Positions 4,635 to 24,009 are shown, counted from the stretch's first letter. The stretch: 64,000 nucleotides of DNA from Polyangiaceae bacterium (GCA_965222375.1 CBDCTZ010000016.1:352001-416000); one strand, 5' to 3'. Numbers and translations: made by a program. Notes: generated by a model from the sequence alone, not told the origin.

Positions 4635-4730
4635 CCTGCGCAAGGCCGAAGGGAACCCCTGAAAGGGGCAGGGCGGAACGGACACCAGGATGGAAAGCCG
4701 GTCGTCGCCTGCAGCAACGTCCTGTTAGGT
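4635..4730 (-). repeat. Truncated, degenerate attC (R''/L'' half, long class)
   Basis: Retains CCGAAGGGAACCCCTGAAAGGGGCAGGGCGGAACGGAC and CAACGTCCTGTTAGG; R' half missing. Confidence 0.8.
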
Positions 4731-4792
4731 GGTTCCCAGTGGCACTGCACGCAGGTCCACGTGTCGCCCGGTGTCAGGCGCAATCCGGACGT

Positions 4793-7160: not shown

Positions 7161-7240
7161 GCCTAACAATTGAGGCGTTCAGCAGCGAACGCCGAACAAC
7201 ATACGCAGACTCTATCACGCTGCAGGCGCAGAATTGCGCC
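7161..7240 (-). repeat. Truncated attC (L'/R' half)
   Basis: GCCTAACAATTGAGGCGTTCAGCAGCGAACGCC on + strand; similarity ends at about 7240. Confidence 0.85.
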
Positions 7241-7698: not shown

Positions 7699-8090
7699 GA
7701 CGACCTAGTCCAAAGCTCCACGGTCCGAGCTGATGGCACGTCTGCGGGGTCGGAGGTGTCGACCTTGCGTGCCGCCTGCCAATCGCGGCGCGGATCCACC
7801 GGCAAGAGGCGAACAGCCGCGTGGCGCCAGTGCAACGAAGGTCCGACAGCGCCCAGGCCCTCCACTGGCAGCGTAGCCGCGCGTTGTCGGGCTTCCTGAC
7901 AAGCTACGAGGACCTGAGCACCGCGGCCGGCGGACGGTTTCCACGTCATTGCCACAACCGACGTCGCGGAGCGTCTCGTCACGTCGCGGTAGGCCGCGTG
8001 GTCCTCGCCCGCAGGCACCGCCCGGTCTCACGCAAGCAATTGGTTTGACCGAACTAGCGGTTGATGCTCGGTTGCTTGCGGCGGTTCACT

Positions 8091-8150
8091 TTGCGGAGGA
8101 GCAGGGATTCGACCCCTGGGTGCCCTTTCGGGCGCGCGGTTTTCGAAACC
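8091..8150 (-). pseudogene. 3' fragment of tRNA-Ser(CGA)
   Basis: Minus strand GGT-TTCGAAA-ACCGC, long variable arm GCGCCCGAAAGGGCAC, T arm CAGGG-GTCGAAT-CCCTG, acceptor 3' strand CTCCTCC-G-CAA; D arm and 5' acceptor strand absent. Confidence 0.75.
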
Positions 8151-8316
8151 CAAAATTCTACCACGCTGCAGGCGCAGGGTTGCGCCGACCGCAGCGAAGG
8201 CTGCTCGGCGCAAGAACCCTGCGCGAGACCGAAGGGAACCCCTGGAAGGGGCAGGGCGGGACGGCCGCTATCCACTCAGAAAGCCGGCGGTCGTCTGCTG
8301 CAACGTCCTGTTAGGC
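8148..8316 (-). repeat. Truncated attC (long class, R' end replaced by tRNA fragment)
   Basis: Internal hairpin, 26-bp insert and CTGCTGCAACGTCCTGTTAGGC end present. Confidence 0.85.
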
Positions 8317-8870: not shown

Positions 8871-9078
8871 ACCTAGCAATTGAGGCGTTCAGGAACGCCG
8901 CGAACAGCCTCACCCAAGACTACCACGCTGCAGGCGCAGGGTTGCGCCGCACGTGTCGAAGGGTGCTCGGCGCAAGAACCCTGCGCGAGACCGAAGGGAA
9001 CCCCTGGAAGGGGCAGGGCGGAACGAACGCCATCCAGTCAGAAAGCCGGCGATCGTCTGCTGCAACGTCGTGTTAGAC
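8871..9078 (-). repeat. attC, long class (208 bp), degenerate R' (GCTAGGT)
   Basis: Homologous to the array attC consensus with mutated core and L' box. Confidence 0.85.
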
Positions 9079-9088
9079 AGCTCTGTTG

Positions 9089-9463
9089 TCAGGGTGCGAG
9101 CTTGAATTCGACGTTTTCTCGAGTGACGTGGCACTCGTCGCTATCGTCAACAACGACGGTCTTCTTGGCGGTCTGGTATCCAGGCGCGGATACAGTAACC
9201 TCGTACGTTCCAAGTCGCTCACCGACGCCGAAGCAAGTGCAGTCGGTAGCGGCGGAGCACTGGAGAGCCTCCTGGAACTGCCCGTCCTGCGCGACGACGG
9301 ATGCGTTGCAAATCCGCTCTCCGGTTGCCTCGTCGCGAACGGTGACGTTGATGGAGTAGTGGAGACTAGCGTCGCAGGACTTACTGCTGCTGCAGTTTGG
9401 AAGGACGGCTAGCAGGGTCGGGCCGAGTAGTAACCACAAGAATCGACTGGAGGAAGCACGCAT
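9089..9463 (-). CDS. Secreted protein/lipoprotein with carboxypeptidase-regulatory/PEGA-like domain (cassette)
   Basis: Signal peptide ending in Cys; GTYEVTVSAPGYQT motif; ATG 4 nt after R'. Confidence 0.75.
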   Translation of the reverse strand: MRASSSRFLWLLLGPTLLAVLPNCSSSKSCDASLHYSINVTVRDEATGERICNASVVAQDGQFQEALQCSAATDCTCFGVGERLGTYEVTVSAPGYQTAKKTVVVDDSDECHVTRENVEFKLAP

Positions 9464-9467
9464 GTCT

Positions 9468-9680
9468 GTCTAACGATTGAGGCGTTCAGCAGCGAACGCC
9501 AGCAACAGCATACACAAAAACCCACCACGCTGCAGGCGCAGGGTTGCGCCGAAGGCAGCGAAGGCTGCTCGGCGCAAGAACCCGGCGCGAGACCGAAGGG
9601 AACCCCTGGAAGGGGCAGGGCGGAACGGACGCCATCCAGTCAGCAAGCCTGCGGTCGTCTGCTGCAACGTCTTGTTAGGC
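9468..9680 (-). repeat. attC, long class (213 bp)
   Basis: GTCTAAC...GTTAGGC termini on + strand, conserved L boxes. Confidence 0.92.
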
Positions 9681-9706
9681 GGCATGCGCTGGGCTACGCT
9701 TAGTTC

Positions 9707-9931
9707 GTGGACCTACAGCTGACAGCGGTTTTCAAGAAGGTACCGCAAGGGTACATTGCGTTCGTGGAAGAACTTCCTGGTGCGAACACCCAGGGCGCCA
9801 CGCTTGACGAGGCGCGAGAAAACTTGCGGGAAGCCGTCGAATTGGTGCTTGTTGCCAACCGCGAGTTCGCGCGTGAGGACGCCGGTGACGACGAAGTAAT
9901 CCGCGAGCAACTCAGGATCGCTAGCGGGTGA
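9707..9931 (+). CDS. hicB: HicB family antitoxin (inverted TA cassette)
   Basis: GYIAFVEELPGANTQGATLDEARENLREA. Confidence 0.9.
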   Translation: MDLQLTAVFKKVPQGYIAFVEELPGANTQGATLDEARENLREAVELVLVANREFAREDAGDDEVIREQLRIASG

Positions 9932-10113
9932 AGCGTCGCGATCTGATCCGGCATCTTGAGAAGAACGGTTGCCGGCTCCTGCGCGAGGGTGGAAGTCACT
10001 CGGTGTACGTCAATCCAGCGGCGAAGAAGGCATCAACTGTGCCTCGCCACTCCGAGGTCAACGACCATCTCGCGCGCAAGATCTGCAAGGATCTCGATGT
10101 GCCTCGCCCTTAG
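9928..10113 (+). CDS. hicA: HicA family toxin
   Basis: MKRRDLIRHLEKNGCRLLREGGSHSVY...VPRH. Confidence 0.92.
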   Translation: MKRRDLIRHLEKNGCRLLREGGSHSVYVNPAAKKASTVPRHSEVNDHLARKICKDLDVPRP

Positions 10114-10158
10114 CGGAGTGCGCTCCAACGGCCAGCCTGCGCGATGAGTCTGTGGTCC

Positions 10159-10369
10159 GCCTAACAATTGAGGCGTTCAGCAGCGAACGCCAGAAACAAC
10201 ACCACCCAAGACTACCACGCTACAGGCGCAGGGTTGCGCCGAACGCAGCGAAGGCTGCTCGGCGCAAGACCCCTGCGCGAGACCGAAGGGAACCCCTGGA
10301 AGGGGCACGGCGGAGCGAACGCCAACCAGTCAGAAAGCCGGCGGTCGTCCGCTGCAACGTCCTGTAGGC
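10159..10369 (-). repeat. attC, long class, 1-nt deletion in R''
   Basis: Ends CCTGTAGGC instead of CCTGTTAGGC. Confidence 0.9.
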
Positions 10370-10621
10370 GGGGTTCACCGTGACGTAGAACGCCGCTGGC
10401 GGGGGCAGCTCGGTGGCGGCGCTGGCGAAAGCATGCGCGGCAGCAATGGACTTAGTGTGAATGGAAACAACGTCGCCCTCGAACACGCAGCGATCCACGT
10501 ATGCCTTTGCGTCGACAAGAGAGAGCCCAAGGTGAGTGCAGAGCAGTCGGATTACTTCGACGGTCCCGACGCTAGCGGGACCACAGAAACGCGGGTCGAT
10601 CCGGAGTTGTACAGTGGGCAT
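10220..10621 (-). CDS. Hypothetical cassette protein with L7/L12 C-terminal-like motif; reads through into attC
   Basis: VEVIRLLCTHLGLSLVDAKAYVD; expected TAA in R'' lost by the deletion. Confidence 0.6.
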   Translation of the reverse strand: MPTVQLRIDPRFCGPASVGTVEVIRLLCTHLGLSLVDAKAYVDRCVFEGDVVSIHTKSIAAAHAFASAATELPPPAAFYVTVNPAYRTLQRTTAGFLTGWRSLRRAPSRGSLRSRAGVLRRAAFAAFGATLRL

Positions 10622-11010
10622 CAGTGATCACTTCGCGTCGGCGGCTGTAGGCGTGCCCTGATGTATCCGCGAGCCTCGAGATTGAGTCCCCACTCGTCGG
10701 TCCCGCGCGAAATGCCCAAGAAGTAAAGGTTCCGATCAAGTTGTTCAAAGTGCACATCGCAGTCGGACGCGCGCAACGACACCAGCGTTGATTCGTCGTC
10801 GACCTCTACCGTCACCCATGCGGGTTGGTCATCCCAGGGATGGACCTGAATTCGGTTTTTCTGGGTCGTCCAGACGTCGATAACCGTGCTTGTTGAACCC
10901 CCGACCCGAAGGACGTAGCGCGCAGCACCAGTTCGGACGATCTCAATCAAGACGTCGTCGGCAGCAAAGTCATCGACGTCGCCGCTGGGCTGGACCTCGA
11001 GGCGCATCAC
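10621..11010 (-). CDS. Hypothetical acidic cassette protein
   Basis: GGAGGA SD right after R'; stop overlaps start of next gene. Confidence 0.7.
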   Translation of the reverse strand: MMRLEVQPSGDVDDFAADDVLIEIVRTGAARYVLRVGGSTSTVIDVWTTQKNRIQVHPWDDQPAWVTVEVDDESTLVSLRASDCDVHFEQLDRNLYFLGISRGTDEWGLNLEARGYIRARLQPPTRSDH

Positions 11011-11016
11011 TCCTCC

Positions 11017-11203
11017 GCCTAACGATTGAGGCGTTCAGCAGCGAACGCCAGCAACAGCATAACCAAAAAACCACCACGCTGCAGGCGCAGGGTTGCACCG
11101 AACGCATCGAAGGATGCTCGGTGCAAGAACCCTGCGCGCAGGGCGGAACGGACGGTACCCGGTCAGAAAGGCCGCGATCGTCTGCTGCAACGTCCTGTTA
11201 GAC
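11017..11203 (-). repeat. attC, short class (187 bp)
   Basis: GCCTAAC...GTTAGAC. Confidence 0.92.
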
Positions 11204-11497
11204 CGCCCGGTCACGCCAGTAGCCTGGTCGGCGCTTGCAGTGTGCGATGGCCACAACCAGCACCACTTCTCCACGCACGCAGTACACGACTTCGTAGGGG
11301 AACCGCTGCAGAAGGAACCGTCGCGTTCCCTCAAGATGTGCTGGCCAGGCGCCGGGCGCTGCCACGATTTCGCGAAAGGCGCGACGAACCTCGAGTTCAA
11401 AGGCGGTCGCGGCTACGGGGTTGCGCTCGGCGTACCACTCTGCCGCCGCGCGAGCCTCGTCTGCAGCCTCGGCGAGTACATCAAGTACGACCGCCAC
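11198..11497 (-). CDS. RelE/ParE family toxin
   Basis: AADEARAAAEWY...TRRFLLQRFPYEVVY...VVAIAHCKRRPGYW. Confidence 0.9.
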   Translation of the reverse strand: MAVVLDVLAEAADEARAAAEWYAERNPVAATAFELEVRRAFREIVAAPGAWPAHLEGTRRFLLQRFPYEVVYCVRGEVVLVVAIAHCKRRPGYWRDRAV

Positions 11498-11720
11498 TCG
11501 CGATTGCTTTCAGGTCGTCCAACAGTTGTTCACCGGAAACAACGCGCGCCTTTCCGGCGTCGTAGGCCTGAACACGCTTTTGGATTTCGACCGCCCACGC
11601 GACGTCGCGGTCGGCGTCCGGTGGGGATTCATCCAGACTGTGAATTAGCTCGCCCAGGAGTTTCGCGCGGGCCTCAACTGGCAGACGGAGCGCTTCCTGC
11701 AGCAGTTGGTCGATATCCAT
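11481..11720 (-). CDS. Addiction-module antitoxin (TIGR02574-like)
   Basis: LLQEALRLPVEARAKL...AWAVEIQKRV; upstream of and overlapping the toxin. Confidence 0.85.
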   Translation of the reverse strand: MDIDQLLQEALRLPVEARAKLLGELIHSLDESPPDADRDVAWAVEIQKRVQAYDAGKARVVSGEQLLDDLKAIASGGRT

Positions 11721-11769
11721 GAACCCAGTGTACCAGAGCAAGCGGCCACGGCCAGATACGGCGTTGTCG

Positions 11770-11955
11770 GTTTAACAATTGAGGCGTTCAGCAGCGAACG
11801 CCAGGAACATCATACCAAAAAACCAAAAGGCTTCAGGCGCAGGGTTGCGCCGAACGCAGCGAAGGCTGCTCGGTGCAAGACCCCTGCGCGCAGGGCGGAA
11901 CGGACGCTACCCAGTCAGAAAGCCGGCGATCGTCTGCTGCAACGTCCTGTTAGGC
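11770..11955 (-). repeat. attC, short class (186 bp)
   Basis: GTTTAAC...GTTAGGC. Confidence 0.92.
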
Positions 11956-11961
11956 CGCCCG

Positions 11962-12321
11962 CTAACCCATAGACCTCGCAGCCGGGCCGTGCGGCTCTGG
12001 CCAGACGAACTTCACGAAGTAGATGGCCGCAGCCACGAAGCTGCCAACGAAGAGGAAGATGGCCCAAAGCACGCGAGCGTTCTGATCGAGTGCGGCGTTC
12101 TTGAAGACGTGTGCGACGTAGAAGACGAGGAGCGCAAGGACCTCAAGCATAGTGAGGACATGGAGAGCGAGCAGTGTTGGTATCGCAGAGGCGACCGCGG
12201 GCGGGTCCTGGCCAATGGTTGTGATCGTGGTGAGAAACGCTGCAAAGAAGAGCAGCATGTAGAGTGGAGGCCAGCATGTAGCGACGCCGACAAAGATCTT
12301 GGTGCGCTTGCTCAGTTGCAC
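11962..12321 (-). CDS. Small integral membrane protein (cassette)
   Basis: Three hydrophobic segments; fills the inter-attC interval. Confidence 0.75.
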   Translation of the reverse strand: MQLSKRTKIFVGVATCWPPLYMLLFFAAFLTTITTIGQDPPAVASAIPTLLALHVLTMLEVLALLVFYVAHVFKNAALDQNARVLWAIFLFVGSFVAAAIYFVKFVWPEPHGPAARSMG

Positions 12322-12346
12322 AGAAACCTACGGGCAAAGCCAGTCG

Positions 12347-12559
12347 GCCTAACGATTGAGGCGTTCAGCAGCGAACGCCAGCAACAGCATACCCAAAAAA
12401 CCAAAACGCTGCAGGCGCAGGGTTGCGCCGAACGCAGCGAATGCTGCTCGGCGCAAGAGCCCTGCGCGAGACCGAAGGGAACCCTTGGAAGGGGCAGGGC
12501 GGAACGAAGGCCATCCAGTCAGAAAGCCGGCGGTCGTCTGCTGCAACGTCCTGTTAGGA
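12347..12559 (-). repeat. attC, long class (213 bp)
   Basis: GCCTAAC...GTTAGGA. Confidence 0.92.
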
Positions 12560-12612
12560 GGCTGAGGGTGTCAGGTGCTGGAACAACGGACGCCAGGTGG
12601 TGTCATTAGATC

Positions 12613-13077
12613 GTGTGGGCAAGGGCGGCATTGACTCTCGTGCTGGCAATCGGATGTGAGCAACCGCCACCGGTAGAACTTGCGCGGGCGGGTGGGGCCG
12701 CTGGTGCCATCGAGAGAGCGCGCCAGAGTGTCATGGAGAATCACGCTTACGAGCGCCTCGCCTCGGCCAATGCACGGCTTGTGGTAGGCCACACCTGTTA
12801 CTACGGTGCGAAGCGCCCGCAAGGTTGGGCGGAGCTGAACGTGCTTGTGCGTGCACGTCGTGACGACCTGCTGTGGCGGTTGCAGCGAGCGCCAACGCCG
12901 GAAGCGCGCTTGTACGGCGCGATCGGCTTGCGGGAAACGGAAGCGGTTGGCCCGAAGTGGTTCAAAGTGCTGGTGGCGGCGGTCCGGGAGCCCGTGGCGA
13001 CGTGCAGAGGGTGCCTGCTTTCATCGGGTTCGGCGGTGGAAGCAGTTGCCGCGTACGATGACTGGGAGTCGGCCTAA
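12613..13077 (+). CDS. Putative lipoprotein in inverted orientation within a cassette
   Basis: LAIGC lipobox; TAA stop falls in the GCCTAAC of the neighbouring attC. Confidence 0.65.
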   Translation: MWARAALTLVLAIGCEQPPPVELARAGGAAGAIERARQSVMENHAYERLASANARLVVGHTCYYGAKRPQGWAELNVLVRARRDDLLWRLQRAPTPEARLYGAIGLRETEAVGPKWFKVLVAAVREPVATCRGCLLSSGSAVEAVAAYDDWESA

Positions 13078-13257
13078 CAATTGAGGCGTTCAGCAGCGAA
13101 CGCCAGAAACAACACCAACCAACAATATCACGCTACAGGCGCAGGGTTGCGCCGACCGCAGCGAAGGCTGCTCGGTGCAAGACCCCTGCGCGCAGGGCGG
13201 AACGGACGCCATCCAGTCAGAAGGCCGGCGTTCGACTGCTGCAACGTCCTGTTAGGC
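13072..13257 (-). repeat. attC, short class (cassette B variant)
   Basis: Appears identical to 21455-21640. Confidence 0.92.
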
Positions 13258-13259
13258 CG

Positions 13260-13700
13260 CTACGCTACTCCGACGCCTTCCGCGCCTGCACTTCCGGGTC
13301 CGGAAGGAGGCGGTATGTCGGCAACCAGCGCCTCGATGCGCGGCAAGCGAGGAGTGACAGCAGATCGGACCGTTTCAATGGATTGAGGTGCCGAAAAACG
13401 AAGGAGCAACACGTAGATCCCGCCAAAGGATCTGAGATAGGCATCGCCGGAGCGGCGTTTCGCGAAGCGATCAAGGCGGCCGCCGCGACGGAGCGGGGGA
13501 TCGAGACTGGCGAGTTCGTCCAAAACGATCTGCGCAGCGGGAGAGCGGCCGTCGTCCTTCACGTGTTCGCTGGAACACCAGAGCGTACCGCGACTGTCGA
13601 GCACGTAGGCGTAGATGGCGCGGGCATCGGCAGCCAAATTGGTCAGCACGCGCCGCAGCTCGGACGAGGCCGGCGTTTCAGGACCCATGCGCATTCCCAC
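13260..13700 (-). CDS. Cassette B hypothetical protein (copy 1)
   Basis: Same translation as 21643-22083. Confidence 0.75.
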   Translation of the reverse strand: MGMRMGPETPASSELRRVLTNLAADARAIYAYVLDSRGTLWCSSEHVKDDGRSPAAQIVLDELASLDPPLRRGGRLDRFAKRRSGDAYLRSFGGIYVLLLRFSAPQSIETVRSAVTPRLPRIEALVADIPPPSGPGSAGAEGVGVA

Positions 13701-13717
13701 CCACTGTCTCGACGTCG

Positions 13718-13904
13718 GCCTAACAATTGAGGCGTTCAGCAGCGAACGCCAGAAACAACATACCCAAACTCTACCACGCAGTCAGGCGCAGGGTTGCGCC
13801 GAACGCAGCGAAGGCTGCTCGGTGCAAGAACCCTGCGCGCAGGGCGGAACGGACGCTGACGAGTCAGAAAGCCGGCGGTCGTCTGCTGCAACGTCCTGTT
13901 AGGC
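13718..13904 (-). repeat. attC, short class (cassette A variant)
   Basis: Appears identical to the copies at 18403, 20244 and 22101. Confidence 0.92.
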
Positions 13905-13908
13905 AACG

Positions 13909-14274
13909 CTACGAGGACTTGCGGGTCAACCGTGACGCCACCTCGACCAACCCGTTGGTGATGACTTCCGGAAGCGGCGCCGCCAACTTCGTTCGGAGGA
14001 GCGCAGCGATGTCCATTGTGAACAGCACTTCTCCGCCAGCGAAGAGTGAGACGGTTTCGTCCTCCTGGTGCAACCCATCTGGCCACCACTTCCGCTGCCA
14101 CTCGATCCTCAGGGGCTGGTCCTGGATCGAAGCGCAACGGAGGACGACACTGGCGGGGTTGTATGCCGTTTCTGATTCCTGAATTTGAACAACCTCGAGA
14201 CCAAGTTCCTCGAGTCTTGCGCGGAGGTTGGAGACCGCCGCGGTGTCAGACAGGAAAAGGAAGGGCTGAGCCAC
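13909..14274 (-). CDS. Cassette A hypothetical protein (copy 1 of 4)
   Basis: Identical 121-aa translation in four places. Confidence 0.7.
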   Translation of the reverse strand: MAQPFLFLSDTAAVSNLRARLEELGLEVVQIQESETAYNPASVVLRCASIQDQPLRIEWQRKWWPDGLHQEDETVSLFAGGEVLFTMDIAALLRTKLAAPLPEVITNGLVEVASRLTRKSS

Positions 14275-14284
14275 CTGCGCGATT

Positions 14285-14471
14285 GCCTAACAATTGAGGC
14301 GTTCAGCAGCGAACGCCAGGAACAACATACCCAGACATTATCACGCAGTCGGGCGCAGGGTTGCGCCGACCGCAGCGAGGGCTGCTCGGCGCAAGAACCC
14401 TGCGCGCAGGGCGGAACGGACGCCATCCAGTCGAAAAGCCGGCGGTCGTCTGCTGCAACGTCCTGTTAGGA
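14285..14471 (-). repeat. attC, short class (cassette C variant)
   Basis: Appears identical to 18970-19156. Confidence 0.92.
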
Positions 14472-14493
14472 GGCGTCGTTCTTTAGCAGTCGA

Positions 14494-14883
14494 CTATTCC
14501 GTACGGCCAAGAGGCACCGCTTGGGACCAGCGAGCGCCCTCCTGACATTCGAGCATGGCGCCCTGGTTGTGTGCAACGAGACGGAGGGGCCGCGAGGTGA
14601 CGCACCGAAGGAAGGCATTCAGATCGCTCGCCATTGCGGTCATGAGCTCGTGGCGGGGCGTGTCATCGTACCCGTCGTAATCGCACCAGTCGGTGACCTC
14701 CAGTCCGGAGGAGTGCTTCGCGTCGACGAACCACTCGAGAACGTTGATGGCAGCGTGGACTGTCACGGAAAGCTCGTCCCGTGTGAGGACAATCTCAACA
14801 TACTCCGCGTGCCGCTGGACAACCACGCCCGGCGTTCCGGCGAAGGCCTCCACCGCAGCGACGTGGGGACGGAGAGCTTTCAC
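14494..14883 (-). CDS. Cassette C hypothetical protein (copy 1)
   Basis: GTG 5 nt after R'; same translation as 19179-19568. Confidence 0.7.
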   Translation of the reverse strand: MKALRPHVAAVEAFAGTPGVVVQRHAEYVEIVLTRDELSVTVHAAINVLEWFVDAKHSSGLEVTDWCDYDGYDDTPRHELMTAMASDLNAFLRCVTSRPLRLVAHNQGAMLECQEGARWSQAVPLGRTE

Positions 14884-14888
14884 CGTCC

Positions 14889-15075
14889 GCCTAACGATTG
14901 AGGCGTTCAGCAGCGAACGCCAGCCACAGCATACCCAAAAAACTACAACGCTGCAGGCGCAGGGTTGCGCCGAACGCAGCGAAGGCTGCTCGGCGCAAGA
15001 ACCCTGCGCGTGGGGCGGAACGGACGCCATCCAGTCAGAAAGCCGGCGGTCGTCTGCTGCAACGTCCTGTTAGGC
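14889..15075 (-). repeat. attC, short class (187 bp)
   Basis: GCCTAAC...GTTAGGC. Confidence 0.92.
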
Positions 15076-15524
15076 GGGCCCCGCCGTCTCTTGGACGTTG
15101 GCTTGCAGCCAGTGAACCAACGCCTCCAGGGTGAGCCGCCCCGAGGCGACGGACATTACGACGCTTTCCTGTTCGTCGTCCGTAGCGATGATTTCGAAAC
15201 CGTTCAGTACGAGGAAGACTTCCATCGCGGCGTGACCGATTCGCTTGTTTCCGTCGATAAAGGGATGACCTTGTATGAGCGCGAAACCAAGCGCGGCGGC
15301 TTTCTCAACAAGGGTTGGGTGCAGCTCGACACCATCGAACGTGGCGAGAGGTTGTGCGAGTGCGGATTGAACTCGCCCGAGGTCGCGCACACCGGCGGCA
15401 CCGCCGGAAGGTAACCGTTCAGGGGTAGGGCGCCTGGACACCGCGGTCTCGCGCAAGCGATCGAGATTGCTCCATTATTTCAATCGGCTTTCCATCTTCG
15501 CAAAAATGGGCGATTGGGACGCTG

Positions 15525-16979
15525 GTGAGCGATCCGCAGGCCGACCGTACCCGGCAGCTCGAGGCTGAAGTTGCAGCCAAAGATGCCCGCATCGCGGAGC
15601 AGGATGCGCGCATCGCGGAGCAGGATGCCCGCATCGCGGAGCTTGAGCAGCAGGTTGCTAGCTTGCTGGAGAAGCTGAATCAAAACTCGTCGAATTCGCA
15701 CAAGCCACCGTCCAGCGATCCCCCGGGCAATCGGAAGGAGCGTCGATCGCGGGCCAAGCAGAAGAAGCGCAAGCGAGGTGGGCAGAAGGGGCACCCGGGC
15801 AGCCACCGAAACTTGGTGCCGGAAGATCAGGTGGACAAGTTCGTCGACCACTTCCCACGCGAGTGCGAAAATTGCTGGAAACCGCTGCCGGAAGTCCGCG
15901 ACCCGCACGCCCATCGTCACCAGGTGACCGAGGTCCCACCCATCCGCCCGCACACGACCGAGTATCGTCGCCACGCGGTAGCCTGCGCAGGCTGCGCCCA
16001 TGTCACTTGCGCGCGCTACGACGAATCTCTGATCCCAACGTCCTCATTTGGACCTCGCCTGATGGCGTTAGTGGCTCTCTTTACGGGCGTGTATCATCTC
16101 AGCCGGCGCAAGGCGCAAGGGCTACTTGCCGATGTGCTGGGCGTCTCGGTTTCACTCGGCGCGATCAGTGCGGTCGAAGAGCGCGTCAGCGACGCGCTCG
16201 CGCCCGCGGTCAATGAAGCCTGGGACCATGCGGTCCAGGCCGATGTGAAACACACCGATGGAACAACCTGGTTTCAGGCAGGCACGACGATGTCCCTTTG
16301 GACCATCGCCACCGCGGCGGTGACGGTGTTCCGGATCCTCGCCGATGGCGCCAAAGACACACTCCGGCCGTTGTTCGGCGACCTGAATGGGATCTTGGTA
16401 AGTGATCGCGCCACAGCACTTACTTTCTGGGCGGCGGAGCGCCGGCAGATCTGTTGGGCGCATTTGCTACGTAAGTTTGTGTCGTTCTCGGAGCGCGATG
16501 GTCCCGCCGGCGCGCTTGGCCGAGACTTGCTCGGCTACACCGGCATCTTGTTCGATTATTGGCGCGACTACCGGGCGGGGAAAATGACCCGGGAGCGATT
16601 TCTGGCGTGGATGGCTCCGCTGCGGCAGCAGATGGAGGCTATGTTCGAGAAGGCTGTCCTCCTCGACATCAAGGACTTGTCGGGGTCGTGCGCCAACATT
16701 CTGAAATACAAGGAGGCGCTTTGGACCTTCATCGAGCGCGATGACGTGGAGCCGACAAACAACCATGCCGAAAGGGAACTGCGCGCTTTCGTGCTCTGGC
16801 GCAAGGGCTCGTTCGGAAGCCAGAGCAAGCGTGGCAACGTCTTCGCTGAGCGCGTGATGACCATCGCGCACACGGCGCGCAAGCAGAACAAGAACGTGCT
16901 GACTTTCCTCGCCGAGTCCTGCCAAGCTCGCATGGAGGGGACAAACTGGCCCTCCTTGTTCAAGACCGCAGCAGCTTGA
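15525..16979 (+). CDS. IS66-family transposase (TnpC-like)
   Basis: Coiled coil, NSSNSHKPPSSD, GGQKGHPG, CxxC zinc finger, HTDGT/VSDR/NNHAERELR DDE, QICWAHLLR. Confidence 0.95.
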   Translation: MSDPQADRTRQLEAEVAAKDARIAEQDARIAEQDARIAELEQQVASLLEKLNQNSSNSHKPPSSDPPGNRKERRSRAKQKKRKRGGQKGHPGSHRNLVPEDQVDKFVDHFPRECENCWKPLPEVRDPHAHRHQVTEVPPIRPHTTEYRRHAVACAGCAHVTCARYDESLIPTSSFGPRLMALVALFTGVYHLSRRKAQGLLADVLGVSVSLGAISAVEERVSDALAPAVNEAWDHAVQADVKHTDGTTWFQAGTTMSLWTIATAAVTVFRILADGAKDTLRPLFGDLNGILVSDRATALTFWAAERRQICWAHLLRKFVSFSERDGPAGALGRDLLGYTGILFDYWRDYRAGKMTRERFLAWMAPLRQQMEAMFEKAVLLDIKDLSGSCANILKYKEALWTFIERDDVEPTNNHAERELRAFVLWRKGSFGSQSKRGNVFAERVMTIAHTARKQNKNVLTFLAESCQARMEGTNWPSLFKTAAA

Positions 16980-16980
16980 G

Positions 16981-17394
16981 TCACTCAGTATCGGCCGCGG
17001 CGTCCACCGCCATCGGGAAGTACCGCGTCAGATGCTTGGAACCGACGCTCCGGATCTGCCCCGCACTCCTCAAACGCGTCATCGGTCGGTGCAGCTCGCG
17101 CACCGAAATGCCGACTTCCTCTGCCAGCGCCGCCATGCCCTTGCCGGGGCTCGCACAGATGGCCGCGTAGAGCCGCTGCCCAATCGCCGTAACTTCCTCG
17201 GGTGGACGGCGACGTCCCGTGCGACCTCTCGACCCTGTCGATGACTTCCGCGCCCTGGCAGCCCGCGTCTCCGCCACCGCGAAGCCTCGCTCGACCGCCT
17301 CCTGCGCGCTCCGCCGGCTTTCCGCGATGTGCTCCCGAACCAGCTGCTCGATCCGCTCCGACAATCCCTCGCTGTTACTCGTCGTCTTCGCCAT
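16981..17394 (-). CDS. Putative winged-helix DNA-binding protein carried inside the IS
   Basis: SPGKGMAALAEEVGISVRELHRPMTRLRSAGQIRSVG wHTH-like pattern; lies within the inverted repeats. Confidence 0.7.
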   Translation of the reverse strand: MAKTTSNSEGLSERIEQLVREHIAESRRSAQEAVERGFAVAETRAARARKSSTGSRGRTGRRRPPEEVTAIGQRLYAAICASPGKGMAALAEEVGISVRELHRPMTRLRSAGQIRSVGSKHLTRYFPMAVDAAADTE

Positions 17395-17509
17395 GCGCCA
17401 CGAATCTCACGTCCCGAGCCGGGCCCTCAACCCAACCCCTGAACGGTTACGCCGGAAGAGGCTACCAGGGCAGCGTGAAGCCTGAGCACCTCGCCGAGTG
17501 TCAGGAACC

Positions 17510-17707
17510 TCATCGAGCAAGCCGACGATACAACTCCGCGTTTTTCGACAGGACGCGGTTCGCGGCATTCTCGAAGTCGTCCGCCGGTTGACCTAGGAGG
17601 TCAGCGATTAGGGCGGAGGCCAACTGCTCTGCGGAGATGCCCAGTGACTTCGCCCTCTCGCGAAGGGCTTCGATCTGGGTTTCCGTCAGTTCGACCGGCA
17701 TTTGCAT
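17510..17707 (-). CDS. Antitoxin partner of Doc (ribbon-helix-helix-like)
   Basis: C-terminal FENAANRVLSKNAELYRRLA; ATGA overlap with doc. Confidence 0.8.
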   Translation of the reverse strand: MQMPVELTETQIEALRERAKSLGISAEQLASALIADLLGQPADDFENAANRVLSKNAELYRRLAR

Positions 17708-17791
17708 GCGAGAAGTGTAGCCGATTTTCTGACGACGGAAACCGGGGCCAACGAAGGCGCCACTCACCAACGCCGCAGCGCGAGATGCTCC

Positions 17792-18004
17792 GCCTAACAA
17801 TTGAGGCGTTCAGCAGCGAACGCCAGGAACAGCATACCCAAAAACCCACAACGCTGCAGGCGCAGGGTTGCGCCGAACGCAGCGAAGGCTGCTCGGCGCA
17901 AGAACCCTGCGCGAGACCGAAGGGAACCCCTGGAAGGGGCAGGGCGGAACGAACGCAGTCCAGTCAGAGCGCCTGCGGTCGTCTGTTGCAACGTCCTGTT
18001 AGGA
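17792..18004 (-). repeat. attC, long class (213 bp)
   Basis: GCCTAAC...GTTAGGA. Confidence 0.92.
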
Positions 18005-18397
18005 GGCTCCGTGGCGGATGGGGGCAAACTCGTTCGGACGCTCGTAAAAAACGCGTTCAAACCGTTCGGTGAGGAAGCTGTCGCTCGGGACCAGTTCGGC
18101 GTAGCGCTCGTTTGCGACGTGCTCAGTTTCGTCCGTCCACTGAGAGAGGACGGGATCCGTCGCCGCCCCGTTGAGGAAGGCGGCCACGTCCTGCAGACCG
18201 AAGTAGGAGAACCCGTCTGCAGCAGCAGCGAGTTCGACCGCTGTGAGGACATCGATGACATGGTGAACGCCGCCGTTCATCGCGATTCCGTGTGCTCGCA
18301 ACAGAGCCGCGAGGGCGGTGTCACCGGAGTGTGGTGTCAGACCGCCAGACTCCAAGGCTGCGCGGTTCCAAACCTGATCCGCGGTGGAAAGAGTCAT
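17999..18397 (-). CDS. Acidic helical cassette protein, DMP19/DUF4375-like
   Basis: AMNGGVHH...AAADGFSYFG pattern, acidic C-terminus; stop in R''. Confidence 0.6.
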   Translation of the reverse strand: MTLSTADQVWNRAALESGGLTPHSGDTALAALLRAHGIAMNGGVHHVIDVLTAVELAAAADGFSYFGLQDVAAFLNGAATDPVLSQWTDETEHVANERYAELVPSDSFLTERFERVFYERPNEFAPIRHGAS

Positions 18398-18402
18398 CGT
18401 CC

Positions 18403-18589
18403 GCCTAACAATTGAGGCGTTCAGCAGCGAACGCCAGAAACAACATACCCAAACTCTACCACGCAGTCAGGCGCAGGGTTGCGCCGAACGCAGCGAAGGC
18501 TGCTCGGTGCAAGAACCCTGCGCGCAGGGCGGAACGGACGCTGACGAGTCAGAAAGCCGGCGGTCGTCTGCTGCAACGTCCTGTTAGGC
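18403..18589 (-). repeat. attC, short class (cassette A variant)
   Basis: Repeat copy. Confidence 0.92.
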
Positions 18590-18593
18590 AACG

Positions 18594-18959
18594 CTACGAG
18601 GACTTGCGGGTCAACCGTGACGCCACCTCGACCAACCCGTTGGTGATGACTTCCGGAAGCGGCGCCGCCAACTTCGTTCGGAGGAGCGCAGCGATGTCCA
18701 TTGTGAACAGCACTTCTCCGCCAGCGAAGAGTGAGACGGTTTCGTCCTCCTGGTGCAACCCATCTGGCCACCACTTCCGCTGCCACTCGATCCTCAGGGG
18801 CTGGTCCTGGATCGAAGCGCAACGGAGGACGACACTGGCGGGGTTGTATGCCGTTTCTGATTCCTGAATTTGAACAACCTCGAGACCAAGTTCCTCGAGT
18901 CTTGCGCGGAGGTTGGAGACCGCCGCGGTGTCAGACAGGAAAAGGAAGGGCTGAGCCAC
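18594..18959 (-). CDS. Cassette A hypothetical protein (copy 2 of 4)
   Basis: Identical translation. Confidence 0.7.
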   Translation of the reverse strand: MAQPFLFLSDTAAVSNLRARLEELGLEVVQIQESETAYNPASVVLRCASIQDQPLRIEWQRKWWPDGLHQEDETVSLFAGGEVLFTMDIAALLRTKLAAPLPEVITNGLVEVASRLTRKSS

Positions 18960-18969
18960 CTGCGCGATT

Positions 18970-19156
18970 GCCTAACAATTGAGGCGTTCAGCAGCGAACG
19001 CCAGGAACAACATACCCAGACATTATCACGCAGTCGGGCGCAGGGTTGCGCCGACCGCAGCGAGGGCTGCTCGGCGCAAGAACCCTGCGCGCAGGGCGGA
19101 ACGGACGCCATCCAGTCGAAAAGCCGGCGGTCGTCTGCTGCAACGTCCTGTTAGGA
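18970..19156 (-). repeat. attC, short class (cassette C variant)
   Basis: Repeat copy. Confidence 0.92.
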
Positions 19157-19178
19157 GGCGTCGTTCTTTAGCAGTCGA

Positions 19179-19568
19179 CTATTCCGTACGGCCAAGAGGC
19201 ACCGCTTGGGACCAGCGAGCGCCCTCCTGACATTCGAGCATGGCGCCCTGGTTGTGTGCAACGAGACGGAGGGGCCGCGAGGTGACGCACCGAAGGAAGG
19301 CATTCAGATCGCTCGCCATTGCGGTCATGAGCTCGTGGCGGGGCGTGTCATCGTACCCGTCGTAATCGCACCAGTCGGTGACCTCCAGTCCGGAGGAGTG
19401 CTTCGCGTCGACGAACCACTCGAGAACGTTGATGGCAGCGTGGACTGTCACGGAAAGCTCGTCCCGTGTGAGGACAATCTCAACATACTCCGCGTGCCGC
19501 TGGACAACCACGCCCGGCGTTCCGGCGAAGGCCTCCACCGCAGCGACGTGGGGACGGAGAGCTTTCAC
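19179..19568 (-). CDS. Cassette C hypothetical protein (copy 2)
   Basis: Identical translation to 14494-14883. Confidence 0.7.
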   Translation of the reverse strand: MKALRPHVAAVEAFAGTPGVVVQRHAEYVEIVLTRDELSVTVHAAINVLEWFVDAKHSSGLEVTDWCDYDGYDDTPRHELMTAMASDLNAFLRCVTSRPLRLVAHNQGAMLECQEGARWSQAVPLGRTE

Positions 19569-19573
19569 CGTCC

Positions 19574-19760
19574 GCCTAACAATTGAGGCGTTCAGCAGCG
19601 AACGCCAGAAACAGCATACCCAAAAAACCTCAACGCTGCAGGCGCAGGGTTGCGCCGAACGCAGCGAATGCTGCTCGGTGCAAGAACCCTGCGCGCAGGG
19701 CGGAACGGACGCCATCCAGTCAGAAAGCCGGCGGTCGTCTGCTGCAACGTCCTGTTAGGC
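19574..19760 (-). repeat. attC, short class (187 bp)
   Basis: GCCTAAC...GTTAGGC. Confidence 0.92.
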
Positions 19761-19795
19761 AGCTGGCGGCCCGCGCGTCGAAGCACGTGCCGTCG

Positions 19796-20239
19796 TCAGC
19801 GTGGCTTTGTCGCAACTCCGCGCAAGATGTCGATGCGATTCGGGGGAGCGTTCGGAGACATGAAGTCGGGAATGGTTTCCGCCGTTCGTCGAGGCCTGCT
19901 CAGGAACTCCACAGGCCACTCCGTCACGCGGCGCTGCTTGACGTGGACGTACCGGCCGTCTTCGTGCTCATCAATGAATTCTTGTTGGACGATGAGCGCC
20001 AAGGGCTCTTGAGCGCCGCTGGTCTGCCTCGAAAACTCGAACGCTTCGTCACAAGACGCGAAAGCGTAGAAGTAGTCGCTCCCGTTGTCCTCGTCGTCAG
20101 CTCCTTCAGACGGACAGCACCAGACGCGATACTCGAGAACGCCGTCCCAGACATACCCCCCACCAGCGTGTGCTTCTGCAGGATAGGTGCCGACGAGCGC
20201 GGGATCCACGACGGGCGGATATGTGTCGTCTGCTCTCAT
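19796..20239 (-). CDS. Hypothetical acidic cassette protein
   Basis: AGGGYVWDGVLEYRVWC...RRVTEWPVEFLSRP; ATG 4 nt after R'. Confidence 0.8.
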   Translation of the reverse strand: MRADDTYPPVVDPALVGTYPAEAHAGGGYVWDGVLEYRVWCCPSEGADDEDNGSDYFYAFASCDEAFEFSRQTSGAQEPLALIVQQEFIDEHEDGRYVHVKQRRVTEWPVEFLSRPRRTAETIPDFMSPNAPPNRIDILRGVATKPR

Positions 20240-20243
20240 GCCT

Positions 20244-20430
20244 GCCTAACAATTGAGGCGTTCAGCAGCGAACGCCAGAAACAACATACCCAAACTCTAC
20301 CACGCAGTCAGGCGCAGGGTTGCGCCGAACGCAGCGAAGGCTGCTCGGTGCAAGAACCCTGCGCGCAGGGCGGAACGGACGCTGACGAGTCAGAAAGCCG
20401 GCGGTCGTCTGCTGCAACGTCCTGTTAGGC
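20244..20430 (-). repeat. attC, short class (cassette A variant)
   Basis: Repeat copy. Confidence 0.92.
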
Positions 20431-20434
20431 AACG

Positions 20435-20800
20435 CTACGAGGACTTGCGGGTCAACCGTGACGCCACCTCGACCAACCCGTTGGTGATGACTTCCGGAAG
20501 CGGCGCCGCCAACTTCGTTCGGAGGAGCGCAGCGATGTCCATTGTGAACAGCACTTCTCCGCCAGCGAAGAGTGAGACGGTTTCGTCCTCCTGGTGCAAC
20601 CCATCTGGCCACCACTTCCGCTGCCACTCGATCCTCAGGGGCTGGTCCTGGATCGAAGCGCAACGGAGGACGACACTGGCGGGGTTGTATGCCGTTTCTG
20701 ATTCCTGAATTTGAACAACCTCGAGACCAAGTTCCTCGAGTCTTGCGCGGAGGTTGGAGACCGCCGCGGTGTCAGACAGGAAAAGGAAGGGCTGAGCCAC
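20435..20800 (-). CDS. Cassette A hypothetical protein (copy 3 of 4)
   Basis: Identical translation. Confidence 0.7.
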   Translation of the reverse strand: MAQPFLFLSDTAAVSNLRARLEELGLEVVQIQESETAYNPASVVLRCASIQDQPLRIEWQRKWWPDGLHQEDETVSLFAGGEVLFTMDIAALLRTKLAAPLPEVITNGLVEVASRLTRKSS

Positions 20801-20810
20801 CTGCGCGATT

Positions 20811-20996
20811 GCCTAACAATTGAGGCGTTCAGCAGCGAACGCCAGAAACAACATCAACCAACCCTACCACGCTGCAGGCGCAGGGTTGCGCCGAACGCAG
20901 CGAAGGCTGCTCGGCGCAAGAACCCTGCGCGCAGGGCGGAACGGACCTCACCCAGCCAGAAAGCCGGCGGTCGTCTGCTGCAACGTCCTGTTAGGA
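20811..20996 (-). repeat. attC, short class (186 bp)
   Basis: GCCTAAC...GTTAGGA. Confidence 0.92.
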
Positions 20997-21024
20997 GGCG
21001 CGGTTCAGTTGGCGGAATGTACGT

Positions 21025-21438
21025 CTACGAATTCGCCGCCCGCTCGAGTGCTTCGCTGATGTCGGTGGCCCAGGACTTCGCGTCACGAAACGGACGTAAG
21101 AAGACGTGATCGTGTCCTGCGAACGCGAGCTCCATGTGCATCGCGGGGGCCCGCATGGCGTTCGAACTGTGCACAACGACAGGGTACCGGTGAGGCTGGC
21201 CGGCGAGGAAGGAAGACACGTCCTGTCCAGACCCCGGGTTTTCGCCCCGCAACGCGGGTGCGTCCAAGTCGCAATCAAGCGAAAGAACGTGGGCGCGTCC
21301 AGGGTGCAAGCGCAACCATGACAGCATTTCGTGCGCAGACTCGAAGAGCAGGAGCTCGCAGTCCACCAGCAACTTGAGGGCACGTCGCATCTCGGCAATG
21401 CGCCACACGTCATCCTCAAGCACAGCGATCAGCGTCAT
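21025..21438 (-). CDS. Stand-alone receiver-like protein, cyclic-phosphate-processing REC (cREC) type
   Basis: VLEDD...LSLDCDL...GSGQDV...VVHSSN motif series. Confidence 0.7.
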   Translation of the reverse strand: MTLIAVLEDDVWRIAEMRRALKLLVDCELLLFESAHEMLSWLRLHPGRAHVLSLDCDLDAPALRGENPGSGQDVSSFLAGQPHRYPVVVHSSNAMRAPAMHMELAFAGHDHVFLRPFRDAKSWATDISEALERAANS

Positions 21439-21454
21439 GAAGAGGTGGTCGTCC

Positions 21455-21640
21455 GCCTAACAATTGAGGCGTTCAGCAGCGAACGCCAGAAACAACACCA
21501 ACCAACAATATCACGCTACAGGCGCAGGGTTGCGCCGACCGCAGCGAAGGCTGCTCGGTGCAAGACCCCTGCGCGCAGGGCGGAACGGACGCCATCCAGT
21601 CAGAAGGCCGGCGTTCGACTGCTGCAACGTCCTGTTAGGC
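21455..21640 (-). repeat. attC, short class (cassette B variant)
   Basis: Repeat copy. Confidence 0.92.
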
Positions 21641-21642
21641 CG

Positions 21643-22083
21643 CTACGCTACTCCGACGCCTTCCGCGCCTGCACTTCCGGGTCCGGAAGGAGGCGGTATG
21701 TCGGCAACCAGCGCCTCGATGCGCGGCAAGCGAGGAGTGACAGCAGATCGGACCGTTTCAATGGATTGAGGTGCCGAAAAACGAAGGAGCAACACGTAGA
21801 TCCCGCCAAAGGATCTGAGATAGGCATCGCCGGAGCGGCGTTTCGCGAAGCGATCAAGGCGGCCGCCGCGACGGAGCGGGGGATCGAGACTGGCGAGTTC
21901 GTCCAAAACGATCTGCGCAGCGGGAGAGCGGCCGTCGTCCTTCACGTGTTCGCTGGAACACCAGAGCGTACCGCGACTGTCGAGCACGTAGGCGTAGATG
22001 GCGCGGGCATCGGCAGCCAAATTGGTCAGCACGCGCCGCAGCTCGGACGAGGCCGGCGTTTCAGGACCCATGCGCATTCCCAC
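21643..22083 (-). CDS. Cassette B hypothetical protein (copy 2)
   Basis: Identical translation to 13260-13700. Confidence 0.75.
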   Translation of the reverse strand: MGMRMGPETPASSELRRVLTNLAADARAIYAYVLDSRGTLWCSSEHVKDDGRSPAAQIVLDELASLDPPLRRGGRLDRFAKRRSGDAYLRSFGGIYVLLLRFSAPQSIETVRSAVTPRLPRIEALVADIPPPSGPGSAGAEGVGVA

Positions 22084-22100
22084 CCACTGTCTCGACGTCG

Positions 22101-22287
22101 GCCTAACAATTGAGGCGTTCAGCAGCGAACGCCAGAAACAACATACCCAAACTCTACCACGCAGTCAGGCGCAGGGTTGCGCCGAACGCAGCGAAGGCTG
22201 CTCGGTGCAAGAACCCTGCGCGCAGGGCGGAACGGACGCTGACGAGTCAGAAAGCCGGCGGTCGTCTGCTGCAACGTCCTGTTAGGC
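22101..22287 (-). repeat. attC, short class (cassette A variant; first cassette)
   Basis: Repeat copy. Confidence 0.92.
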
Positions 22288-22667: not shown

Positions 22668-22720
22668 GCCTAACAGTAATTAGACCGCGATGGCGGTCTA
22701 AGGTGGCTGTCAGTCTAACA
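22668..22720 (-). other. attI: attI recombination site (crossover G/TTAGGC at 22674-22668; outer extent uncertain)
   Basis: Identity with the other cassette A copies stops just past the GCCTAAC core, where no attC follows; lies 5' of the divergent intI. Confidence 0.8.
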
Positions 22721-23034
22721 GAGCGGTGGGGCCCCGATAAATCGGGAAAGGGGGTGCGTGGTGCACGTTAGGTGGGTCCACCTAACGTGCGAAGACGAGG
22801 TCCATCTAACAGAGGGGACTGGGCGGACCGTTTGGCCTCCGAGCCGGCGTTCAGCCGTGCGGGCGAGTTGGATGGCCGGCGCGGCGTTGGTTGGGGGTGG
22901 GCAGTGCTCGCAAGGGAGTGGCGTTCGCCATGGCGTCGATCTGGTGTCGCCACTGCGCGGAGCGGAGTGGCGACCGGCTTTCTGAGGAGAAGGGGGCGCC
23001 CGGGGGGCGGCATGGATGTTGATGAGGCTGGGGC

Positions 23035-24009
23035 ATGGGTTTGGAGCGTCGGACTCAGTTGTTGGAGCAAATGCGTCAGGCGCTGCAGGTGAGGCACTAC
23101 AGTCCGCGGACTGAAGAGGCGTATGTGGCGTGGGTCGAGCGGTTCGTGCACCATCATGATTTGCGGCATCCGGCGGAAATGGGGGCGGAGGATGTTCGGG
23201 TGTTCTTGGAGCACCTGGCGTCTGCGGACCGGGTGGCTGCTGCGACGCAGAATCAGGCGCTGGCGGCGCTCTTGTTCTTGTACGCGAATGTGCTGGGCAT
23301 GCCGTTCGAGGAGGTTGGGAGCTTTGTGCGTGCGAAGCGGCCGAAGCGCTTGCCCGTCGTGCTTGGCGCCGGGGAGGTGGCCGCCTTGCTGGAGCAGCTG
23401 GATGGGGTGCCGCTCTTGATGGCGCAGATGCTCTACGGCTCGGGGTTGCGGTTGCTCGAGTGCGCTCGCTTGCGCGCGAAGGATCTGTGCTTCGAGCGGG
23501 GTGAAGTCTTGGTTCGGAGCGGCAAGGGAGGCAAGGACCGGGTGGCGCCCTTCCCGCGCACGTTGGAGAGGCAGATGCGGATGCATCTCGTGAAGGTGAA
23601 GCGCCAGCACGACATGGATCTGTCTCGCGGGGCGGGGTGGGTGTTCGTTCCACCTTCGCTGGCGCGCAAGTACCCGAATGTGGGTCGCGATTGGCCCTGG
23701 CAATGGGTGTTCCCCGCGACGCGGCAGTACTTTCACACTGCGACGGGGCAGACGCGTCGGCATCACTATCACCAATCCGCCTTGCAGCGCGCCGTGCGCG
23801 TGGCGGGTCGCGCAGCGGGGTTGAACAAGCGCGCGACCTGCCACGCGCTTCGCCATTCCTTCGCGACTCACCTGCTCGAACAGGGCTACGACATCCGCAC
23901 CATTCAGGAGTTGCTCGGCCATCGCTCAGTGGCGACCACGATGGTCTACACCCATGTGCTCAACCGCGGTGGCTTGGGAGTTCGCAGCCCGCTCGACGGG
24001 CTCTGCTGA
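23035..24009 (+). CDS. intI: Integron integrase
   Basis: Tyrosine-recombinase residues [35 protein letters not shown] plus the integron-specific insert [26 protein letters not shown]...RRHH. Confidence 0.98.

Follow-up and report, generated by a model that had tools for sequence, protein, structure and literature searches.

A sedentary integron with oversized attC sites

We analysed a window of 64,000 nucleotides (contig C16:352001-416000) from the genome of a Polyangiaceae bacterium, an assembly of 10.56 Mb in 16 contigs with 64% G+C. The window carries a sedentary chromosomal integron, made up of an integrase gene (intI), an adjoining attI region and a cassette array that runs leftward from them and is punctuated by unusually long attC sites. 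The attC class itself is known; what is new here is a family of giant attC sites that is restricted to one genus, has a modular build and contains a nested hairpin that covaries. The sequence-only reading from which this work started had already named the repeats attC sites, and the integrase bears this out, with 423 bits against the TIGR02249 profile (cut-off 265); its best relative in a collection of species-representative genomes, at 62% identity, belongs to a metagenome-assembled genome (MAG) of the Polyangiaceae. With intI at the right, small open reading frames (ORFs) on the - strand lie between the 18 sites, which are 567-2903 bp apart, and there is one attC per cassette end in an array beside intI and attI, the arrangement expected of such sites. 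Profile matches identified cassette genes for ParE and its antitoxin, HicA/HicB, Doc and GNAT acetyltransferases, together with several ORFs without a family, a set that is typical of integron cassettes.

Eighteen full attC sites, representing 13 distinct sequences, were found within 8872-22287, bounded by RYYYAAC...GTTRRRY-type cores (of the GCCTAAC...GTTAGGC type). The core ends read ...TAAC and GTTAG.. in 17 of the 18, the deviants being GTAGGC at site 10159 and a 5' core CCTAGC at site 8872. Thirteen sites measure 186-187 bp and five long ones 207, 211, 213, 213 and 213 bp. The shorter class had been measured correctly beforehand, whereas the longer class, first given as 208-213 bp, actually spans 207-213 bp; likewise the count of 18 full copies stood, but the range reported for them, 9468-22287, covers only 17, with the site at 8872-9078 and a partial site at 8122-8316 lying outside.

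Published attC sites span 57-141 bp (PMC5371416) and their variable terminal structure (VTS) 20-100 nt (PMC4889954). The sites described here, which measure 186-213 bp and have VTSs of about 130-155 nt, exceed both ranges, in agreement with the earlier claim that they are longer than classical sites. Because length is a descriptive and not a mechanistic property, we regard them as a variant that is still attC. A literature search for attC sites above 141 bp found no report, although the supplementary tables of IntegronFinder and of attC-taxonomy work may list longer ones. By default, IntegronFinder admits attC sites of up to 200 bp; under that default the five sites of 207-213 bp would be rejected and those of 186-187 bp would pass. 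The limit can be changed with the --max-attc-size option, which was set to 300 in PMC13616975.

Anatomy and folding of the sites

In order along the + strand, the parts of a site are R' (GCCTAAC), an unpaired spacer of 5 nt, a 5' arm of 22 nt, a linker of 34-35 nt and a 53-nt hairpin, followed by a 26-nt insert (long form only), a 35-nt tail, the 3' arm and R'' (GTTAGGC). The insert, which bears a small hairpin of its own, is what distinguishes the long from the short form. Four bases of the 3' arm, T, C, T and G, are singly unpaired and correspond to the extrahelical bases of attC sites. From these unpaired bases, the position of intI to the right and the cassette ORFs on the - strand, and by analogy with the attC layout given in PMC5371416 and PMC2727003, the + strand is assigned as the attC bottom strand.

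The nested hairpin quoted in the sequence-only reading lies exactly at 14957-15009. It has three tiers: an outer stem of 10 bp and a middle stem of 7 bp, separated by a bulge of 3 nt on the 3' side, and then, beyond a bulge of 2 nt on the 5' side, an apical stem of 5 bp that closes a loop of 4 nt. The linker on its 5' side, which had been described as A/C-rich, is indeed 77% A+C (347/450 nt), and 52% A+T compared with 36% for the genome. Folded alone, the hairpins reach -21 to -28 kcal/mol, with z-scores of -4.9 to -8.4 on the + strand; for the reference copy at 14957-15009 the value as DNA was -27.7 kcal/mol (z -6.6), and 0/200 shuffles folded as well. Folding of both strands, as had been proposed, gave z -6.85 and -6.44 for the whole 187-nt site compared with shuffles. 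In minimum-energy DNA folds of the + strand the hairpin was present in 13/13 distinct sites, and the attC arms were paired with each other in 10/13; the arm-to-arm duplex amounts to -17 to -30 kcal/mol in most sites. RNAalifold also offered an alternative fold, with the 5' arm folded on itself and the 3' arm paired with an internal segment, which we rejected as a conserved feature; pairing of the internal segment with the 3' arm was no better than in shuffles (median z -0.19; 4/37 below -2).

Compensatory changes preserve the hairpin in related genomes

Homologous attC sites were found in four of five other genomes of the same genus; a search of 35 genomes from other genera in the family and order found none. 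A genus-restricted attC family with a modular VTS is strongly indicated. With a covariance model of the whole site, the window and the relatives' loci together gave 43 strong matches; among the relatives' sites listed from a looser search, lengths were 87-220 nt. Many of the relatives' sites keep the architecture with a diverged hairpin sequence, while four others, of 90, 125, 133 and 141 nt, keep the arms and cores and have no hairpin; the latter are natural deletion or precursor forms.

The sequence-only reading had staked its case on compensatory changes, and these are clearly present. In a model-fitted alignment of 38 distinct sites from four genomes, 93.5% of the cells pair, compared with 27-41% when the partners are slid, and 31/49 pairs change on both sides, which 0/500 shuffles reach; by part, 18/22 pairs of the hairpin and 13/27 of the arms are compensatory, the arm helices being 85-96% paired. 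As this alignment leans towards structure, the analysis was repeated with an alignment made with MAFFT only, in which 90.3% of the cells of 30 distinct hairpins pair (30-47% when slid) and 12/22 hairpin pairs are compensatory, again reached by 0/500 shuffles. The sequences are related, so that all these counts overstate how many changes were independent. The outer and apical stems were also obtained de novo with RNAalifold. The hairpin architecture persists at about 60-70% sequence identity between genomes, and among 30 folds the bulge was retained in 22/30 on the 3' side and in 21/30 on the 5' side. Taken together, these comparisons strongly indicate that the hairpin belongs to the site as an integral element and has been inherited vertically, its pairing and asymmetric bulges preserved despite sequence change. 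Since the pairing is kept through compensating mutations in the relatives, the hairpin is probably a functional component of the site, as opposed to a stray insertion.

Within the apical part of the hairpin (14970-14996 and homologous positions), the loop begins with G in 29/30 distinct hairpins and is purine-rich on the + strand (GAAG, GAAT, GGAG and others). We compared the apex, GCGAAGGC, with GCGNAGC, a motif of very stable DNA mini-hairpins (PMC13037366); it is one base off and does not match.

A whole-site search of 80 intI loci from many phyla gave matches at the level of the arms only, of 62-154 nt. Matches of the greatest length, 152-154 nt, were in a Polyangiaceae MAG (L019), and they have a conserved nested hairpin of their own. 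They belong to a second long attC class of 150-154 nt (L019:8387-12184, L015:5719-5869 and L016:3566-3715), with the nested hairpin GCCCGTGGTA..CCACGGGC, which that MAG (152-154 bp) has in common with one of the same-genus genomes, G005 (150-151 nt). Like the giant sites, these are longer than 141 bp and have a VTS with a conserved nested hairpin; they differ in the hairpin sequence and the arms and are about 35-60 bp shorter. Because this class too is oversized and structured, oversized structured VTSs may be a trait of the Polyangiaceae.

The hairpin was found only within attC sites and their relics

A search for the 14-nt apex with at most 2 mismatches gave 18 matches on the + strand between 8191 and 22188, and 21 in the whole window compared with 1.83 expected; 0/100 shuffles reached 21. 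The sequence-only reading had suggested that the hairpin may be a captured mobile element of the repetitive extragenic palindromic (REP) or miniature inverted-repeat transposable element (MITE) type, and it does resemble such repeats in being a compact, G+C-rich imperfect palindrome of comparable size within a modular site interior. REP- and MITE-like elements are found in many dispersed copies outside any one context, whereas the copies of this hairpin lie within attC sites. In the whole 10.56-Mb genome the full 53-mer with at most 10 substitutions occurs in 20 copies; the array accounts for 19 of them, the remaining copy belongs to a solitary attC on contig C15, and no free-standing copy was found. 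A covariance model of the hairpin alone, with 150 first-pass candidates per genome scored across five same-genus genomes, matched only in the cassette-array regions of four genomes and in one relic, a degenerate attC 73 kb upstream of the window. In a metagenome scan, an exact 30-nt hairpin pattern matched a single contig, again within an attC of a cassette-array fragment. Since the matches are confined to attC sites or their relics, the hairpin does not behave as a dispersed element; the REP/MITE reading is largely refuted for this genome, and we consider capture of such an element highly improbable.

The solitary copy belongs to a small attC cluster without integrase (C15:716131-716994; L018:4131-4995), in which a small ORF separates a 186-bp site of the giant family from an adjacent, different attC-like one of about 135 bp.

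Probable traces of recent cassette movement

Table 1. Integron features of the window (positions counted from its first nucleotide; cassettes named by identity group)
Feature	Position	Strand	Remarks
attC, 187 bp	22101..22287	+	hairpin 22169-22221; first cassette (A, copy 4)
attC, 186 bp	21455..21640	+	hairpin 21522-21574; cassette E, copy 2
attC, 186 bp	20811..20996	+	hairpin 20878-20930
attC, 187 bp	20244..20430	+	hairpin 20312-20364; cassette A, copy 3
attC, 187 bp	19574..19760	+	hairpin 19642-19694
attC, 187 bp	18970..19156	+	hairpin 19038-19090; cassette B, copy 2
attC, 187 bp	18403..18589	+	hairpin 18471-18523; cassette A, copy 2
attC long, 213 bp	17792..18004	+	hairpin 17860-17912, then 26-nt insert
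attC, 187 bp	14889..15075	+	hairpin 14957-15009, reference copy of the sequence-only reading
attC, 187 bp	14285..14471	+	hairpin 14353-14405; cassette B, copy 1
attC, 187 bp	13718..13904	+	hairpin 13786-13838; cassette A, copy 1
attC, 186 bp	13072..13257	+	hairpin 13139-13191; cassette E, copy 1
attC long, 213 bp	12347..12559	+	hairpin 12415-12467
attC, 186 bp	11770..11955	+	hairpin 11837-11889
attC, 187 bp	11017..11203	+	hairpin 11085-11137; two compensatory pair changes (G-C to A-T, G-C to T-A)
attC long, 211 bp	10159..10369	+	hairpin 10226-10278; R'' core GTAGGC, one T missing
attC long, 213 bp	9468..9680	+	hairpin 9536-9588
attC long, 207 bp, degenerate 5' arm	8872..9078	+	hairpin 8934-8986, apical stem held only by + strand G.T pairs
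Partial attC, far array end	8122..8316	+	hairpin 8172-8224, 26-nt insert, 3' arm; R'/L' arm missing; 111 bits
attC relic	7161..7240	+	5' arm, linker and hairpin start only; 36 bits
attC relic	4640..4732	+	segment like the 26-nt insert and 3' arm only; 20 bits
intI, integron integrase, 324 aa, intact	23035..24009	+	TIGR02249, 423.2 bits (cut-off 265), profile positions 1-315 of 315
attI region (extent approximate)	22676..22800	not assigned	cassette-copy identity stops at 22675
IS66-family insertion inside Doc-toxin cassette	15410..17450	+	transposase 15525-16979; PF03050 99.5 bits; Fic/DOC 56.4 bits

Cassette A is present in four copies, identical over 575 nt from the G of GCCTAAC to the A of the next GCCTAAC-A, in three distinct left and three distinct right contexts, and one of them (copy 4) is the first cassette, at attI, to which it is joined directly after GCCTAAC-A, at 22675. 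Blocks of two cassettes, E+A (1221 nt) and A+B (1178 nt), are duplicated as well, and their ends are exact at the same core boundaries (Table 1). IntI recombines attC sites through their bottom strand and crosses over at the AAC/GTT triplet. Identical cassettes with exact ends, together with a copy at attI, are what excision by IntI and subsequent reinsertion at attI would be expected to leave behind, which indicates, indirectly, that these attC sites were recently active and may still recombine. Four public DNA-type runs, all from one study, were also consulted; their assembled unitig contigs break at the attC repeats, and the eight joints listed, with sides of 21-34 nt and a depth of 2-5, were disregarded.

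The attI region holds a palindrome with a 9-bp stem, TTAGACCGC..GCGGTCTAA, at 22680-22701, and a second one at about 22765-22790, ACGTTAGGTGG..CCACCTAACGT, besides several TAAC motifs; the palindromes and motifs may be candidate IntI binding sites. In the middle of the array, the IS66-family element at 15410-17450 encodes a transposase with a DUF6444 N-terminus and has a small helix-turn-helix ORF on the opposite strand. A 2041-nt contig from the public runs covers precisely 15410-17450 and ends at the borders of the element, as expected if the IS66-family element is multicopy. At the far end of the array, beside the truncated last attC, a stretch on the - strand (8083-8160) resembles the 3' two-thirds of a tRNA, with a T-arm-like CAGGGGTCGAATCCCTG, an acceptor end and a hairpin like a long variable arm. 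ARAGORN found zero tRNAs in the window, neither it nor Rfam reported this stretch, and blastn-short gave no second copy of it in the genome; it could be an attachment-site remnant.

Comparison with known attC sites

The closest known parallels are the Vibrio cholerae repeats (VCRs) and other attC sites of sedentary chromosomal integrons. These share with the present sites closely similar, species-specific sequences, canonical R and L arms, a spacer, extrahelical bases and a long branched VTS (PMC5371416), as well as arrays with toxin-antitoxin cassettes and many ORFs of no known function. They differ in length: according to PMC5371416, attC sites measure 56-141 bp in mobile integrons and mostly 120-129 bp in chromosomal ones, VCRs included, with 141 bp as the maximum, in contrast to 186-213 bp here and up to 220 in a relative. 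They differ also in the VTS, which here has a discrete 53-nt hairpin covarying across the genus and an A/C-rich linker. The attC sites of Treponema, 132 bp in T. succinifaciens and 115 bp in T. brennaborense (PMC3607928), resemble ours in that long and short classes occur in one lineage, for which an evolutionary change of length was proposed; they are within the 141-bp range, and are set apart by their description, which in the text available mentions no conserved nested hairpin.

Strand and role of the hairpin

We consider it probable that these sites form a genuine, active attC family whose integral hairpin is selected as a single-stranded DNA structure of the bottom strand with a kinetic or architectural role. 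The hairpin would fold locally and fast, locking about 40% of the G+C-rich interior, and the hairpin and the non-pairing linker together would prevent the long VTS from being flattened or from pairing wrongly with the arms. The linker could serve as a spacer, so that the distant arms meet or extrusion begins, and the hairpin could be a nucleation point for folding from the lagging-strand template or for extrusion from duplex DNA. Binding of a protein, which the sequence-only reading had also listed, would be another possible role.

The base pairs of the hairpin give a hint, though only a hint, as to the folding strand. Read on the + strand they include 29 G.T and only 7 A.C oppositions, and a common G.T variant folds 2.7 kcal/mol better on this strand, which would mark the + strand as the one that folds. 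Several observations weigh against our interpretation. The arms lack such an asymmetry (29 G.T vs 32 A.C), 10/29 of the hairpin G.T cells come from one column, and the model-fitted alignment counts G.U as a pair and thereby biases the G.T count. In addition, both strands fold almost equally well. An equilibrium model, in which native sites were compared with hairpin-deleted versions and with 40 shuffles each, could be evaluated for 12/13 sites, site 8872 giving no arm constraint. The native arm-pairing probability was 0.14-0.54 in 9/12 of these, and deleting or shuffling the hairpin shifted it less than 3-fold in 11/12, in no consistent direction. The role in folding that the sequence-only reading had allowed for thus did not show at equilibrium, and any role would be kinetic or architectural, with no gain in equilibrium stability. 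The hairpin is also dispensable for the persistence of a site in an array, as relatives have hairpin-less sites of 90, 125, 133 and 141 nt with the same arms. Finally, hairpin-templated correction of inverted repeats, known from quasi-palindromes, can mimic compensatory change without selection.

The last point underlies the main rival explanation, a neutral passenger: a palindrome inserted into an ancestral attC and inherited by the whole family, because the attC sites of a lineage share a common template, with its stems kept complementary by templated quasi-palindrome correction and not by function. Such a passenger would fit the absence of an equilibrium effect on arm pairing, the coexistence of hairpin-less sites of 90-141 nt with hairpin-bearing ones in the relatives' arrays and the modular VTS with indels such as the 26-nt insert. 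However, templated correction should erase asymmetries, yet both bulges stay in most hairpins while the stems turn over, and the architecture survives the divergence between genomes. The conserved bulges therefore speak against a neutral passenger, though not decisively, and we regard it as unlikely.

The hairpin might instead act in cassette transcripts, by stabilising their 3' ends, serving for processing or insulating cassettes from one another. In favour of this, the - strand, which is the sense strand of the cassettes, folds well too, and attC structures in mRNA influence the expression of downstream cassettes. On the other hand, the G.T pairs of the + strand become A.C mismatches in the sense RNA (29 vs 7), and Rfam gave no family at E up to 1 except for a sub-threshold hammerhead II at 6138-6187 (24 bits, gathering score 37). 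Transcription termination, one of the roles that had been proposed, found no support: the hairpin is not directly followed by a U-tract or T run, as an intrinsic terminator would be, a T-rich stretch on the - strand lying at least 10 nt from the stem and not being conserved, and a scan of the window returned 13 terminator-like sites, compared with 15.0 +/- 3.6 in shuffles, none of which is the nested hairpin. An RNA-level role thus seems quite improbable.

The cumulative GC skew of contig C16 (3.48 Mb) has its minimum at about 160 kb and is then positive on the + strand to the end of the contig, although weakly (+0.014); dnaA lies on contig C15 and not on C16. If the + strand is the leading strand, as the positive skew may hint, the attC bottom strands would form part of the lagging-strand template, an orientation that is less common among chromosomal integrons and has been tied to arrays of at most 22 cassettes (PMC5371416); the present array has about 19.

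Significance

The VTS is usually regarded as a variable, unconserved loop. In this lineage it has a fixed, modular interior, whose hairpin is kept by compensatory change. The sites of 90, 125-141, 186 and 213 nt, which have the same arms with or without the hairpin, form a natural series for studying how the VTS affects folding, strand choice and the single-strand and cruciform pathways. Surveys of integrons in the Myxococcota and other environmental phyla may miss cassettes where they set an upper limit to attC length or treat the interior of the site as an unstructured gap.

A further-reaching proposal, which we consider speculative and rather unlikely, is that attC has, beside its spacer, extrahelical bases and VTS, a fourth functional determinant in the hairpin. 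The hairpin would either nucleate folding or cruciform extrusion, as a self-folding module with conserved bulges which, aided by the easily melted linker, lets a giant site extrude that otherwise could not, or be the binding site of a factor, from the host or the integron, that gates the recombination of cassettes. If this were true, the integrons of the Polyangiaceae would use an extended attC grammar that lies outside current attC models.

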